DNA from: a virus
Lineage: Duplodnaviria > Caudoviricetes
Reading direction: 5' to 3' (one strand)
Length of the DNA: 64,000 bases
IMG/VR virus record: IMGVR_UViG_3300048854_000081
Coordinates: 128,001 to 192,000 of that record
The notes beneath the pieces were generated by a model, which saw nothing but the letters and a program-made list of their open reading frames with translations, did not search any database and had not been told where the DNA came from. Position numbers and translations under genes: made by a program. Positions 49,487 through 63,178 of the stretch are shown here, in pieces. Within the stretch, counting starts at the first letter, position 1. Every line of letters starts with the position of its first letter.

Positions 49487-49677
49487 AACTTAACTCGGAG
49501 CTTGAGGGGCAACGAAAGCAATTGTACCGCAATGGCATAGAGTTAATTTACTTTATGCGTGGTGCTCTAAGCAGAGAAGACATGCTTGATATGGTTCCAT
49601 TTGAACGAGAAATCATAATGGAATTCATCAACGAAAGATTGGAAGTGGAAGGTAAGAGAACAAACCCGGTGTATTAA
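49447..49677 (+). CDS. Unannotated 76-codon -1 frame ORF (small gp51-like chaperone segment), probably reached by frameshift from gp26
   Basis: Hand translation FGTLKSG...YFMRGALSREDMLDMVPFEREIIMEFINERLE...PVY*; fills the gap and overlaps the next ATG (TAATG). Confidence 0.7.
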   Translation, partial: FGTLKSGTREQRLKLNSELEGQRKQLYRNGIELIYFMRGALSREDMLDMVPFEREIIMEFINERLEVEGKRTNPVY

Positions 49678-50378
49678 TGGATAAGAACGTAATCGCAATA
49701 GACCCATCCCTTAACAGTACTGCCATGGTTGTAAATGATATCAAATTCATTTACGCCAAGGCCGATTATGGTATGTCAGAGAAGACAGGTAAGCTTAAGA
49801 AATGGTTTGAACTATGTGATCATTTAATTACGTATCGTTGGATCACCTACAAGAAGATCGCTGACCATTCTGAACAAGAGATTCTTAAGCTTGTTCAGTA
49901 TGATGAACTCACGGATCGTATTATTCAAGATATCTTAGATAACATCGATCCCAATCTTCCTACCATTGCTGGTATCGAAGGTTATAGCTATTCATCCAGT
50001 GCCGGTCCACTCATCGATCTTGTTACATTCAGTACCTTCATACGAAGCAAGCTTTATAATAAGGTAACTGAAAATATCGTAGTTTACCAGCCAGCCCATT
50101 TGAAGCTGGAAGCGGCCAAGCTAACTTATGCACCAACGGTCAAGGGTGTCAAGGTCAAGAAGTATGAGTTCCGTAACAATCAAGGTATCTCAGGTGGTAA
50201 GTTCAAGAAGCCTGAAATGTACCGTGCCTTGATCGATAATACCAACATTAACTGCCTTTGGGTAAAGTTTCTTCGCCAGAATGCCAAGGATATCATTGAC
50301 CTCAATACGGTACCAAAACCGATTGAAGACATGAACGATGCCAAATTGATGTATGAAATAATATTAAAGAATAAATAA
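49677..50378 (+). CDS. RuvC-like Holliday junction resolvase/nuclease
   Basis: IAIDPSLNSTA, IEGYSY and DMNDA supply the acidic residues. Confidence 0.7.
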   Translation: MDKNVIAIDPSLNSTAMVVNDIKFIYAKADYGMSEKTGKLKKWFELCDHLITYRWITYKKIADHSEQEILKLVQYDELTDRIIQDILDNIDPNLPTIAGIEGYSYSSSAGPLIDLVTFSTFIRSKLYNKVTENIVVYQPAHLKLEAAKLTYAPTVKGVKVKKYEFRNNQGISGGKFKKPEMYRALIDNTNINCLWVKFLRQNAKDIIDLNTVPKPIEDMNDAKLMYEIILKNK

Positions 50379-50403
50379 TTGATATTAAAAGATTACATTG
50401 ACC

Positions 50404-51378
50404 ATGGCATCCTCCCAAGAAATCTACTCACAGATCACCCAAGCAATCAATCCCGACAACTCATCTAAGCGTCCAACGTTAGGATGGGTTGCTGGTGCAT
50501 TCAAGCGTGCCTACGACTTCGGTCGCATTCAGGCTGTCTTGAATAATCGTTCTGATGAACTTGATCCTGATACTCGCCAGACCTACCAAAACCTATTGAA
50601 GCTTCGCGATATCGCGGTGAACAATGGTTTGATGGTTGCCGAAGGTAACAAATATAAGGTTACTAACGCTGGTAGCAAGTTCGTACAGGACTTGGCTAAG
50701 AACATCAAGCAGTGGGAGTCGATTAACGATCTTACTTTCAAGCAACTTCGTGGTGAGGTTCAATCTGCCAAGGGTCAAGCCGATCAGGAATGGTACAACA
50801 GTCTTTCTCCTATCGAACAGCATATCATTGATCTATATTCTAAGCTAACTATCAAGGAATTCCATTTCTTGACGGGTGTGAAGAATGACAAGGATGGTAA
50901 GAACAGATATGTTAACCGTATCGAAACCATGGAAGACAGTGATCCAGAATCTTACAATATGTTAAGAGATTTGGGATTCATCACCAAAAAGAATACCATC
51001 AATGATGCCTTGGTATCCACATTCTTCAGAACGTTAGGTAAGTACGATTATCGTCATCTTCGTTCGTTCAACCGTAGCATTTCCAGCCGTAGTGATAGAC
51101 TTGCTGCCGATGCCGCATTGAACCAGAACCATGCAGACCGTATGGCAACAGATCGCAATCCTACTGATGGTGGCATGATGTCGGATCGTGAGCGAATGGT
51201 AGCAAACTCTAGAATGCCTTCCGATGTGGAAGAGCCAAACAACCGTCAGCAACAGCGTTCCAGAATCTTGGGTGGCCGTAAGGACGCCTTTAATGATAGA
51301 ATGCGTCGTACAAGACCGGCTAATGAATCTAAGAGTTTGTCCTTCAAACAATTTTTAATTGAAAAGATTGACAAATAA
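50404..51378 (+). CDS. Hypothetical late protein
   Basis: AATAAATA at 50370-50377; ends SLSFKQFLIEKIDK. Confidence 0.55.
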   Translation: MASSQEIYSQITQAINPDNSSKRPTLGWVAGAFKRAYDFGRIQAVLNNRSDELDPDTRQTYQNLLKLRDIAVNNGLMVAEGNKYKVTNAGSKFVQDLAKNIKQWESINDLTFKQLRGEVQSAKGQADQEWYNSLSPIEQHIIDLYSKLTIKEFHFLTGVKNDKDGKNRYVNRIETMEDSDPESYNMLRDLGFITKKNTINDALVSTFFRTLGKYDYRHLRSFNRSISSRSDRLAADAALNQNHADRMATDRNPTDGGMMSDRERMVANSRMPSDVEEPNNRQQQRSRILGGRKDAFNDRMRRTRPANESKSLSFKQFLIEKIDK

Positions 51379-51395
51379 AAATTTCGTGGTATAAG
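51368..51395 (+). promoter_or_regulatory. Sigma70-type promoter firing into the non-coding region
   Basis: TTGACA-16 nt-TATAAG with an extended TG. Confidence 0.6.
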
Positions 51396-51401
51396 TCTTT
51401 C

Positions 51402-51835
51402 CATAGATGAATCGTTAATGAACGGTTCATGGATTGCAATTTCACAGGAAGTGATACAATTTACAAATCTTGATTAGGCTGATCTAGTAGGTGCAATACC
51501 GAAGGACGGAGGGTTAAGACATATTATGTTTAGAGACTGATATGTTCAGTAAGCCCGCACGGTCTATGTGAGAGTGTTATAGAAATATAGTTTTTCCGAG
51601 ATTAAACTTTTCTACAACTACTTGACTCACTAAAAATACCATTCATCCTCTAAGGTGATGGGATCGGAGGAATCAGTTAGGAACTGAAACCAATGTAGCC
51701 GTATATAGAGCACGCAGTCAACACATTTGCTCTAGATCGATGTTAGTGATACATGGCATAAACGTATCGGGTTTGGTAGCGAACTAGTTAACCCATAATA
51801 TTAAAATATATTATAAAAAACGGGGGTAGGGTAGA
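51402..51835 (+). ncRNA. Candidate structured non-coding RNA (family not recognised)
   Basis: No ORF of 60 aa or more; upstream promoter; dense succession of stems, several with G-U pairs on the + strand. Confidence 0.4.
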
Positions 51836-51880
51836 TCATAAAGCTCTTCTCTATAAACTAATATAAAAAGTCCATAATTG

Positions 51881-51936
51881 GAATTAGAACGAAGTTCTAA
51901 TTCAATTTAGAAATAAACTTCGTTTATTTCTAAATT
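51881..51936. repeat. Two abutting perfect palindromes with GAA/TTC triloops
   Basis: GAATTAGAAC-GAA-GTTCTAATTC and AATTTAGAAATAAAC-TTC-GTTTATTTCTAAATT. Confidence 0.9.
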
Positions 51937-52005
51937 CATTTAATATTGATTTATAGATATTTAATATTATTAATTATGCACCAATTACATTACATATAAA
52001 AGCAC

Positions 52006-52034
52006 TTGACAAGAAAGCAATAAGCGCATATAAT
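52006..52034 (+). promoter_or_regulatory. Consensus sigma70 (early) promoter for the helicase-gp47-gp46 operon
   Basis: TTGACA-17 nt-TATAAT, exact match. Confidence 0.85.
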
Positions 52035-52149
52035 GCACTTGCTCTACAAGGAAAGAAGATACTATTAAAAGCAATAGATTTATATTATGTGAATTAGACA
52101 TTGTAGATTTCTATGTGATAGTATCCCGGTCCCCACAAGAGGCAAAGCA

Positions 52150-53754
52150 ATGACTGACTCCAACATCCTAAATTACTGGCCTATGCCTAATTTCCCACCT
52201 CGCTTCTCCCAAGAGAAAGTGCTGAAGTGGATGGAATCTCTACCACCGAATATCAAGTACATTCTATGTGAAATCCCTGTTGGTGGTGGTAAGTCACCTA
52301 TCGGTCTGAATCTAAGTGCATACCTAGCCAATTCATACGGCAACTCCTTCATTCTTACCCCACAGAAGATTCTACAAAAGCAGTATCAAGACTCCTTTGA
52401 TAAGGAACACCTCTTTTCTCTCTATGGGAAAGGGAACTACAAGTGTGCTCCAAAGGACACCAATTGTGATGTAGGTGCTGATCTAAAGCCGCGTTGCGAA
52501 AGCTGTCCACATAGGAACGCCATGACACAGGCGAAGTCCTCACCTAATATCGTATTGAACTACACCTTGGCTCTTCTCCTGTTCATGCTAAACAATGAAT
52601 TGAAGATTTCCAAGAGAAAGCTAATTGTATTCGACGAATGCCATACCTTGGAACATCACCTAACCGAATTCAAAGCACTTCAAATTGGTGAGAAGCGCTG
52701 CCGTCAGTTCAAGGTCAAGTTTCAGACACCTAAGAACGAATATGAAGCAGTTGAATGGCTAGCTGATATCTACAAGCCAGCAGTTATCAAGGAATACAAT
52801 TCCCTTAAGGCAGTTGTAGATGAAATCATGTCTCGTTACGAAGATGGCGAAGCCATGGAACGTGCTGACGCAGAACTGATCAATAAGCTAAAGGATGTCG
52901 TCGGACACCTAGATTCGCTTAATGAATACACAGCTATGACCATTGATGAGATATTAGAGAAGTACGCACTCATTCGTGATAAGTCATTTTTCAAATTCAA
53001 GCCACTCTATGGCAAGGAGCTATTCCGCCAGTACATCAATCCAATGGCTGATCGATTCCTTTTCATGTCCTCTACCATTCTGGACAAGGACGCCTATTGC
53101 CGTGATCTTGGTATTCCGCCAAGTGAAGCCGCTTTCATTTCTATTGACTCGGAATTTGAGCTAGACAATCGTCCAGTGATCTACAGCCCTACCATGAAGA
53201 TGACCTATGGCTGGGATAAGGACGACAAGCGCAACGACAGAAAAGTCATGATAAGTAAGATTATGGAGATATGCGAAACTCATAGCGATGAGTCTGGTGT
53301 GATCCATACGGGTAGCTTCCAAGTAGCCTCATGGCTGATCAAAGAGCTACAGGGTAAGGTACCACATCACTTGATGCACCATAATCCCGAATCGGATTCA
53401 TCCCGTGATCAGGTGATTGAAGAGTTTACTAACAATAATGGTCTTCAGCCATGTTTACTGATCAGTCCTAGCGTCACCGAAGGTCTCGACCTGAAGGATG
53501 ACCGTGGCCGATTCTCCATCATCGTGAAGGTTCCGTATCCATACCTTGGGGATAACTGGGTCAAGCGTCGCCAAGAGCTATCCAAGGAGTGGTACACCCG
53601 TCAGGCTATGATCGGTATTATTCAGGCGACTGGTCGTATCGTTCGTTCAAAGACGGACTGGGGTTACAATTATATTTTAGATGAATCCTTTGGATCACTG
53701 GCGAAGATGTATTCTCGCAACATTCCAAAGTGGTTCAAAGATTCTATCCTTTAA
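52150..53754 (+). CDS. DinG/XPD-like SF2 helicase
   Basis: PVGGGKS, four-Cys cluster, FDECH, EGLDLKDD...KVPYP, QATGRIVRS. Confidence 0.88.
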   Translation: MTDSNILNYWPMPNFPPRFSQEKVLKWMESLPPNIKYILCEIPVGGGKSPIGLNLSAYLANSYGNSFILTPQKILQKQYQDSFDKEHLFSLYGKGNYKCAPKDTNCDVGADLKPRCESCPHRNAMTQAKSSPNIVLNYTLALLLFMLNNELKISKRKLIVFDECHTLEHHLTEFKALQIGEKRCRQFKVKFQTPKNEYEAVEWLADIYKPAVIKEYNSLKAVVDEIMSRYEDGEAMERADAELINKLKDVVGHLDSLNEYTAMTIDEILEKYALIRDKSFFKFKPLYGKELFRQYINPMADRFLFMSSTILDKDAYCRDLGIPPSEAAFISIDSEFELDNRPVIYSPTMKMTYGWDKDDKRNDRKVMISKIMEICETHSDESGVIHTGSFQVASWLIKELQGKVPHHLMHHNPESDSSRDQVIEEFTNNNGLQPCLLISPSVTEGLDLKDDRGRFSIIVKVPYPYLGDNWVKRRQELSKEWYTRQAMIGIIQATGRIVRSKTDWGYNYILDESFGSLAKMYSRNIPKWFKDSIL

Positions 53755-62768: not shown

Positions 62769-62965
62769 AGATTTTAGATGTACTGTCAATCACCATTCCT
62801 AATGCTTACAAGGACAAAAATCCTAAGAAAGTAGCCTATAAGAAGGGTAAGTCCCCTTATGGTGCGAATGGTGCTCCAAGTTCTACGGACGGATCGGGTG
62901 CCACGGGTGGCGCATCTTCTGGTGGTCCTGATGGTGGTGGCGCAGGCGGCGGGGGTGGAGAGTGA
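62765..62965 (+). CDS. Small Gly-rich hypothetical protein
   Basis: Coupled to both neighbours by 4-nt overlaps. Confidence 0.5.
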   Translation: MKILDVLSITIPNAYKDKNPKKVAYKKGKSPYGANGAPSSTDGSGATGGASSGGPDGGGAGGGGGE

Positions 62966-63165
62966 AAAAAGTAAAGGCTGGATCATTCAAAGAATACGTA
63001 AACAATCTAAAGATGTCTCCTTATAATTATCTTATCTCAAATACTGAGGAATTTAAGAAAGAGGAAGAAGAGGCTGGGATTGAACCGACACCAGAAGAGA
63101 AAGAGGAAGAGAATTCAAAGTCTCTCCTACAATACCTTCTAGTAGCAAATCAAGTAAACCGATAA
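62962..63165 (+). CDS. Small acidic hypothetical head-module protein
   Basis: Contains SFKEYV; coupled to the upstream ORF. Confidence 0.5.
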   Translation: MKKVKAGSFKEYVNNLKMSPYNYLISNTEEFKKEEEEAGIEPTPEEKEEENSKSLLQYLLVANQVNR

Positions 63166-63178
63166 TTAAGGATTAAAA

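Follow-up and report, generated by a model that had tools for sequence, protein, structure and literature searches.

What is encoded by the 771-nucleotide (nt) gap between the gene for a 326-amino-acid (aa) protein (end at 51378) and a DinG/XPD-type helicase gene (start at 52150) in a large phage genome? The gap lies in positions 128001-192000 of the 350,036-base-pair (bp) IMG/VR virus record IMGVR_UViG_3300048854_000081; this stretch of 64,000 nt is the whole DNA analysed here and is called the window, and positions below are counted from its first nucleotide. A preliminary description of the sequence had claimed that the segment 51368-51835 is free of open reading frames (ORFs), begins with a promoter and may form a new structured RNA. 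Here, we demonstrate that the gap contains an element with a conserved, strand-specific, double-pseudoknotted RNA structure that belongs to no catalogued family. As judged from its sequence features, the element is probably a gene for a stable, independently transcribed non-coding RNA, representing a new family of large structured phage RNAs that would act in trans as RNA.

The coding capacity of the gap is negligible. There are no ORFs of at least 30 aa on the + strand between 51445 and 52150, as had been claimed, and the - strand holds just two short ORFs touching the edges of the ORF-free stretch. The accompanying statement that this is the only large intergenic gap was not borne out: it is the largest one in the window, but a second gap of about 410 nt (62769-63178), downstream of the portal-proximal genes, is ORF-poor as well.

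Covariation supports a conserved RNA structure

The helices (named as in Table 1) were first drawn by eye from alignments and then tested on fresh MAFFT alignments constructed without knowledge of the structure, one for the 5' core (22 sequences, positions 51455-51637) and one for the 3' part (18 sequences, positions 51728-51817). In the 5' core, 89.3% of the alignment cells form standard pairs, compared to 76.1% in shuffles (0 of 500 as high); 18 out of 24 pairs change on both sides, yielding 96 double-change cells versus 31 in shuffles, and the covariation score is 0.527 versus 0.268. In slid controls, where the partner was moved by one to three columns, the paired fraction is 33-53%. In the 3' part, 77.3% of the cells are paired (65.8% in shuffles), with both-side changes in 12 out of 15 pairs. 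Taken together, both alignments contain both-side changes in 30 out of 39 tested pairs. The observed covariation score and paired fraction were not reached by any shuffle, and the number of both-side changes was reached by 0 and 6 of 500 shuffles in the two tests. Compensatory changes on a structure-blind alignment, a generic criterion for non-coding RNA, are thus present, and strong covariation is found in the syntenic regions upstream of the DinG-like gene, where the preliminary description had proposed to look for it. RNAalifold, applied to the four closest sequences, predicts 97 pairs, 31 of them with a compensatory change, and adds helices H1, H2, H3, H4, P_b2, H6, and H8.

The alignments also define the strand. 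At two positions of helix P_a, a G-U pair is retained in 21 out of 22 sequences; on the opposite strand, these pairs would be A-C mismatches, and therefore the + strand is the RNA. Conservation of the promoter on the + strand agrees with this assignment.

Ten stems had been listed from the single sequence in the preliminary description. All of them are complementary, and nine match helices that are kept in relatives, but the stem 51536-40/51546-50 is not kept. Three (51568-72/51626-30, 51748-52/51764-68, and 51769-73/51790-94) covary on the structure-blind alignments; five (51407-16/51421-30, 51511-15/51552-56, 51580-85/51609-14, 51639-47/51654-61, and 51706-12/51728-34) fall into helices with compensatory changes in the four-sequence RNAalifold prediction; and for 51673-78/51682-87, counterparts are seen by eye in several homologs. 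Both pseudoknots, PK1 and PK2, were absent from that list.

Architecture of the RNA and its 3' tail

The fold consists of two domains (Table 1). The 5' domain is a three-way junction, formed by P_a around H3 and H4, and is tied to the P_b/P_c arm by PK1, a long-range pseudoknot in which the loop of P_c pairs with a strand 125 nt upstream. In the alignment (columns 13-18/170-175), 87.9% of the PK1 cells are paired, and four out of six pairs change on both sides; the matched variants are AAUCUUG/CGAGAUU, AAUUCUG/CGGAAUU, AACUUCG/CGAAGUU, and AAUAUUG/CGAUAUU. In a distant clade, P_a takes the form GGUUG + AAGAUC, with a double change from C-G to U-A in four sequences. Upstream of the junction, a 5'-terminal hairpin of a different sequence is seen by eye in four homologs (L039, L079, L040, and L082), and the loop of H2 is RGGAU in most homologs.

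The 3' domain comprises H6-H8, PK2, and helix Y. Hairpins at the position of H6 are seen by eye in about 14 homologs, and H8 is flanked by the conserved segments (C)AGCCG and CGAU(C/G). Stem 2 of PK2 is paired in 98.8% of the cells, with both-side changes in five out of five pairs, and stem 1, affected by register slips of MAFFT, in 75.6%, with three pairs changing on both sides. Similar slips blur helix Y, whose three outer pairs covary (GGCG/CGCC, GAG/CUC, AAG/CUU).

The conserved part of the RNA ends with an invariant tail composed of an A-run, one pyrimidine, and a G-run, AAAAAACGGGGGUAGGGUAG in the window and AAAAAAYGGGGGAGGGAG in most other members; the G-rich tract reported earlier at 51822-51831 is indeed present, as GGGGGTAGGG. 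The tail, predicted to be single-stranded, is the most conserved part of the family outside the helices. When the 1000 nt upstream of every helicase gene were scanned, each locus with the 5' core had the A-run and G-run at a distance of 220-345 nt from the helicase gene, compared to 0 of about 60 loci without the core. Due to this one-to-one co-occurrence, the 5' core and the tail are considered to be one unit. The tail sequence occurs once in the 350-kb genome.

One perfect 11-nt complement of the tail, ACCCTACCCCC, is located outside the window at G000:C1:319434-319444. A single site of this kind is close to what chance would produce; no other exists in the genome. It falls close to the 5' end of a short ORF, whose length is about 85 codons if counted from the ATG at 319375 and 92 codons in the longest frame (319354-319632). 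Pairing of the tail with an anti-Shine-Dalgarno sequence was considered and dropped, since the version found in the subgroup of the window, GGGGGUAGGGUAG, does not contain GGAGG.

Distribution and conservation of the element

Loci for comparison were gathered via the helicase protein and then via the helicase alignment, yielding 47 viral and 80 metagenomic loci. A blastn search identified two homologs of the element, and iterated nhmmer many more. The covariance model of the 5' core, R1, produced 29 matches, 23 of them distinct, in 100 sources, with scores of 61-134 bits. Every match shares the strand of the helicase gene and precedes the start of that gene by a few hundred bases; the 23 distinct copies, from viral or metagenomic contigs, are each situated directly upstream of a DinG-like helicase gene. 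Member L044, absent from the training set, scored 116.8 bits with R1 and has kept PK1. The helicases encoded by the member phages share 45-72% identity with that of the window.

In the two closest members, the DNA of the element is 74-82% identical, compared to 61-69% for the flanking proteins, and the spacer following the tail cannot be aligned with either of them. Since the element is more conserved than its flanks, it is under purifying selection. It is a single-copy element in its own genome, with no repeats elsewhere. No DNA similarity was detected in 50,697 GenBank phage records, and in prokaryotic genomes 82 pattern matches were obtained, zero of which were family members according to nhmmer.

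Genomes G000, G002, and G004 bear the RNA, and G001, otherwise the closest complete genome, is RNA-less. Given their near-identical organization, G000 and G001 form a natural pair useful for tests. A ThyA-type thymidylate synthase and a DUF4326 protein (G000:C1:120339-121271 and 297060-297434, respectively; outside the window) are present in G000, G002, and G004 and have no tblastn match in G001.

Transcription unit

As the preliminary description had noted, a sigma-70-type promoter sequence stands at the beginning of the segment (51368-51395). Its -35 box lies within the final codons of the 326-aa gene in front of it, whose stop codon is at 51376-78, and the predicted RNA start is at about 51402. 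The sequence TTGACAA is unchanged across the three closest copies, and most homologs keep TTGACA and a TATAA-type -10 box. A program scan missed this promoter because its -10 box ends in G. On the - strand of the region, matches to the promoter consensus are at chance level (9/12), and there are as many sites in total as expected from shuffles.

Downstream of the tail and an unconserved spacer of about 45 nt, two abutting hairpins are followed by U-rich, very AT-rich DNA. Three relatives were folded, and all have strong hairpins at this location, with other sequences: L004 carries a tandem pair (z = -9.0), and L079 (z = -6.0) and L034 (z = -3.9) carry a single long hairpin each. The twin hairpins are probable terminators of the RNA gene, and thus the transcription unit most likely runs past 51835, the end proposed earlier, up to 51881-51936. 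The helicase operon has a promoter of its own, identical to the sigma-70 consensus, and helicase-proximal promoters are present in the homologs as well. L002, a relative that is RNA-less, retains part of this promoter region (74% over 81 nt).

Because of the promoter in front, the strong hairpins behind, the second consensus promoter serving the helicase, and the contrast in GC content between the element (0.38-0.39) and the DNA after it (0.21-0.23), we infer an independent transcription unit with a primary transcript of about 540 nt and a conserved core of about 433 nt (51402-51834). At the level of sequence, the locus hence has what is generally expected of a non-coding RNA gene, that is, its own promoter and terminator-like hairpins, a lack of coding capacity, and a defined strand.

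Table 1. Predicted structural and transcriptional features of the RNA element and its surroundings (window numbering; relatives are denoted by locus identifiers).
Feature	Positions	Strand	Details
Sigma-70-type promoter of the RNA gene (putative)	51368..51395	+	TTGACA 51368-73, 16-nt spacer, TG-extended TATAAG 51390-95
H1, 5'-terminal hairpin	51407..51430	+	10 bp, AAUG loop; one pair varies CG/AU/GC (RNAalifold)
H2, hairpin	51442..51454	+	UCAC/GUGA, AGGAA loop; AU to GC in 2 of 4 sequences
PK1, 5' strand	51466..51472	+	AAUCUUG; pairs with P_c loop CGAGAUU 51597-51603
P_a	51476..51565	+	AGGCU 51476-80 with GGUCU 51561-65; 99.1% paired
H3, arm inside P_a	base 51483-85/51504-06, hairpin 51490-93/51497-500	+	base pairs change on both sides in 6-7 sequences
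H4, variable hairpin inside P_a	base 51511-15/51552-56	+	RNAalifold
P_b	51568..51630	+	GUGAG 51568-72 with CUCAC 51626-30; 97.3% paired, 5 of 5 pairs change on both sides
P_b2, extension of P_b	51573-85 with 51609-22	+	RNAalifold support
P_c, hairpin	51589-93 with 51604-08	+	5 of 5 pairs change on both sides; loop is the PK1 3' strand
Conserved single strand	51631-37	+	UAAAA(C)A, directly after P_b
H6	51639-46 with 51654-61	+	pyrimidine-rich CCUCU-type loop; both-side changes in 7 of 8 pairs, four closest sequences
H7	51673-78 with 51682-87	+	AGGA loop; by eye, hairpins with different stems and UGGA-type loops in L004, L031, L076, L034
H8, long hairpin	51700..51739	+	both-side changes in 6 of 11 pairs, four sequences
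PK2, H-type pseudoknot	51740..51768	+	stem 1 AUGUU 51740-44/GGCAU 51755-59; stem 2 GAUAC 51748-52/GUAUC 51764-68
Helix Y	51769..51794	+	GGGU 51769-72 with ACCC 51791-94; conserved UUUGG, inner hairpin
Z, AU-rich variable hairpin	51795-801 with 51808-14	+	other sequences in homologs; weak in the window (-2.5 kcal/mol)
Invariant 3' tail	51815..51834	+	AAAAAA, then CGGGGGUAGGGUAG
Two abutting strong hairpins	51881-903 and 51904-936	+	-22.7 kcal/mol, z = -6.1; three-base loops GAA, UUC
Separate helicase-operon promoter (putative)	52006..52034	+	12/12 sigma-70 consensus: TTGACA, 17 nt, TATAAT; not part of the RNA

Genomic context

Judged by the gene layout, with a T4-type portal gene and a long leftward block of late genes, the source of the window is a T4-like jumbo phage. 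The element resides in a rightward block that encodes a T4 baseplate-family protein, proteins of 233 and 326 aa with no match to Pfam families, the DinG/XPD-type helicase, a Mre11-like protein, and a Rad50/SMC-like protein. Among named phages, those nearest to it are two Xanthomonas jumbo phages, XacN1 and Xoo-sp13, and Stenotrophomonas phages, with only about 53% identity of the portal and helicase proteins.

The 233-aa protein (49677-50378), encoded between the baseplate-family and 326-aa genes, has a weak match to PHROG 159, "RuvC-like Holliday junction resolvase" (E = 4.5e-8). Compared to its 392-395-aa versions in L002, L003, and L006, the 326-aa protein (50398-51378) is missing a stretch of about 67 aa from its interior. 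As this protein is shorter than some of its relatives, a group I or group II intron was considered; it was rejected, since the difference is an internal indel, the C-terminus is intact and conserved, and there is no downstream exon ORF.

Search for known RNA families

The element does not correspond to any known RNA family. None of the 4227 models of Rfam 15, which include GOLLD, ROOL, OLE, HEARO, raiA, RNase P, tmRNA, 6S, group I and II introns, and riboswitches, matched the window at the gathering threshold; at E up to 10, region 51200-52300 yielded three chance-level matches only, and in nine related loci there was no match inside the element. ARAGORN found neither tRNA nor tmRNA in the window, and visual inspection of the element did not reveal P4 strands of RNase P, a T-arm/CCA end, or domain V of group II introns. 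The claim that tRNA, tmRNA, and RNase P signatures are lacking is hence confirmed, and the absence of Rfam/Infernal matches combined with the strong covariation supports the suggestion of a structured RNA outside the known families. We found no description of this RNA in the searchable literature. The GGA loops of H2 and H7 had raised the idea of a CsrA-type sponge, which was dropped, as there are about eight GGA motifs versus about seven expected by our own estimate.

Possible function of the RNA

In the reading that we prefer, a stable RNA acting in trans, host RNA polymerase would start at the strong promoter at 51368-51395 and stop at the twin hairpins. The product would have a rigid, nuclease-resistant fold (the 5' hairpin, pseudoknots, and 3' hairpins) and either scaffold a partner, be it a protein or a nucleic acid, or act catalytically, with the invariant tail and the junction strands GGCUGCA, GUCGGA, AAGGUC, UAAAAC, CAGCCG, and GGGUUUGG as its working surfaces. 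Stability of the RNA is suggested by its compact fold and by the hairpins at both ends. Large multi-helix, pseudoknotted RNAs with known function are mostly ribozymes or cores of RNA-protein machines.

Several observations weigh against this reading. Folding energy, one of the measures named in the preliminary description, gives a mixed answer: the + strand folds slightly better than shuffles, but only marginally (z = -1.96) and to the same degree as the - strand (z = -2.05); the structure is accepted because of covariation, not folding energy. There is no consistent intramolecular partner of the tail, as the best duplexes form at different places in different RNAs; the most frequent one, with the pyrimidine strand of helix Y, is driven by G-U pairs and is unconvincing. 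Neither is there a recurrent genomic partner: in four other genomes, complements of the tail are as frequent as controls. The gene-content profile of the 523 ORFs of G000, used as a search for a partner protein, returned only the thymidylate synthase and the DUF4326 protein mentioned above, neither of which is plausible. No copy exists in the whole genome of G001, the nearest complete relative (77% identity of the helicases), and the RNA is also absent from the L030/L077 lineage, where the gap holds only promoters and hairpins; therefore, the RNA is dispensable and its function accessory. Finally, the fixed position beside replication and recombination genes, together with the G-run in the tail, fits a role in cis or at the DNA level equally well.

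As no co-inherited protein and no target of the tail were found, the partner of a trans-acting RNA would be a host factor, a core phage protein, or a nucleic acid, or else the RNA would work alone. A bolder proposal, to which we assign a rather low probability, is that it represents a new class of large phage RNA that works with no dedicated phage protein and is either a ribozyme or RNA-only assembly, or an R-loop primer anchored by the G-run that defines an origin of T4-like jumbo phages, the pseudoknotted core positioning the tail.

The latter possibility leads to the main alternative, an RNA-primed replication origin, which we regard as unlikely but deserving attention. The RNA, strongly transcribed, would be held on the template via the G-run (an rG:dC hybrid) beside the AT-rich, hairpin-rich region 51840-52000 and, after processing, prime the leading strand, like ColE1 RNA II or the transcripts of T4 oriF/oriG; the folded 5' part would steer hybrid formation, and a DinG-type helicase could remove or regulate the R-loop. 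G-runs lend stability to the R-loops of ColE1 and mitochondrial CSB II, and R-loops are substrates of E. coli DinG, which unwinds them. The succession of a promoter, a folded RNA, the A-run and G-run, twin hairpins, and DNA with a GC content of 21-23% is consistent with such a role, as are the conservation of the single-stranded tail and the invariable adjacency of the locus to the helicase and Mre11/Rad50-like genes. However, out of the criteria for ColE1-type primers the G-run alone is visible in the sequence, and no antisense regulator or iterons are seen. Among the criteria for T4-type oriF/oriG, an AT-rich tract does follow the RNA, but the cumulative GC skew of the whole genome shows no turn at the locus (179.4 kb; the minimum is at 145 kb), although this is a weak measure for T4-like phages. 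Moreover, two covarying pseudoknots and conserved loops exceed the needs of known primer RNAs, and complete relatives replicate without the element. If the tail does anchor an R-loop, it would also mark an origin of replication for phages that lack a known one.

A cis-acting leader of the helicase-Mre11/Rad50 operon is considerably less probable. Such a leader would sense a ligand or protein, or modify RNA polymerase, and thereby control read-through of the twin hairpins, in a riboswitch-like or put/antitermination-like manner. The constant location of the RNA in all members, on the same strand and 220-345 nt ahead of the helicase start, and the terminator-like hairpins between the RNA and the operon would fit this role, but it is rated low because the helicase has its own promoter, with a 12/12 consensus, downstream of the hairpins, and so do the homologs. 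Further, the unconserved spacer of about 45 nt leaves no alternative pairing that could link the fold to the terminators; RNA-less relatives keep the operon; and, with about 430 nt and two pseudoknots, the RNA by far exceeds the size of known leaders.

That there is no functional RNA at all, the locus being a decaying remnant (of an intron, mobile element, or dead gene) or a gene of a small protein that merely resembles a fold, is extremely improbable: the patchy distribution among close relatives and the modest folding z-score might hint at it, but compensatory changes at 30 out of 39 tested pairs essentially exclude a remnant, the element is conserved among phages whose helicases are only 45% identical, and it is a single copy with no ORF, no interrupted flanking gene, and no repeats elsewhere in the genome.

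Comparison with known systems

The cultured Xanthomonas phages XacN1 and Xoo-sp13, as well as the cultured phage RAS14, have a conserved element in the same gap between the hub-like and helicase genes (685-820 nt). No same-strand gene is annotated in this gap in any of the three; XacN1 has a small gene, ORF313, on the opposite strand, and the other two have none. The XacN1-type element is about 600 nt long and forms many local hairpins (L156:1760-2345 in XacN1, L157:1750-2345 in Xoo-sp13, and L158:1650-2375 in RAS14); CUAAAAC comes after one of its helices, and its end, just ahead of the promoter of the helicase, is ACGGGGGG. However, these sequences do not match the family described here, neither by nhmmer nor by covariance model R1, even with filters off. 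They also differ from it in that the G-run has an internal complementary sequence, AAACCCCCCG, whereas the new family has no such complement. The 3' segment ACGGGGGGUUUAUU of the XacN1-type element is complementary to the internal AAUAAACCCCCCG. By its sequence features, this element is probably another structured RNA, one that is experimentally accessible, and it may be a diverged homolog or an analog of the new family.

RNase P RNA, tmRNA, and group I and II introns resemble the new RNA in the size range, long-range pseudoknots, and conserved single-stranded junctions; the differences are the lack of Rfam matches, the negative ARAGORN result for tmRNA, and the absence of an interrupted gene. 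With ColE1 RNA II and T4 oriF/oriG, the locus shares a promoter and a predicted transcript of several hundred nucleotides, a G-rich segment, AT-rich DNA downstream, and replication genes nearby. Unlike these systems, it lacks an antisense partner similar to RNA I and the plasmid context, and the RNA is pseudoknotted, with conserved loops, produces no origin signal in the GC skew, and is dispensable in relatives.

The known RNAs that come closest to the new one are GOLLD, ROOL, and OLE, large "ornate" RNAs of bacteria and phages without an assigned function. GOLLD and ROOL are bacterial RNAs tied to phages and prophages, and GOLLD, ROOL, and OLE have recently been shown by cryo-electron microscopy to form RNA-only assemblies (PMC12286853). 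The new RNA is similar to them in having several hundred nucleotides, many helices, and pseudoknots, in having been found through conservation and covariation, and in the absence of a known protein partner. It differs in that it has no match to them in Rfam 15 in sequence or structure, is smaller (a core of about 433 nt), adjoins a helicase gene rather than tRNA genes, and has a distinctive 3' tail formed by the A-run and G-run. Large multi-helix, pseudoknotted RNAs are rare in bacteria and phages. The new family, confined to one clade of T4-like jumbo phages, provides a well-supported further example, in which the promoter and the ends are clear and the invariant tail is striking.

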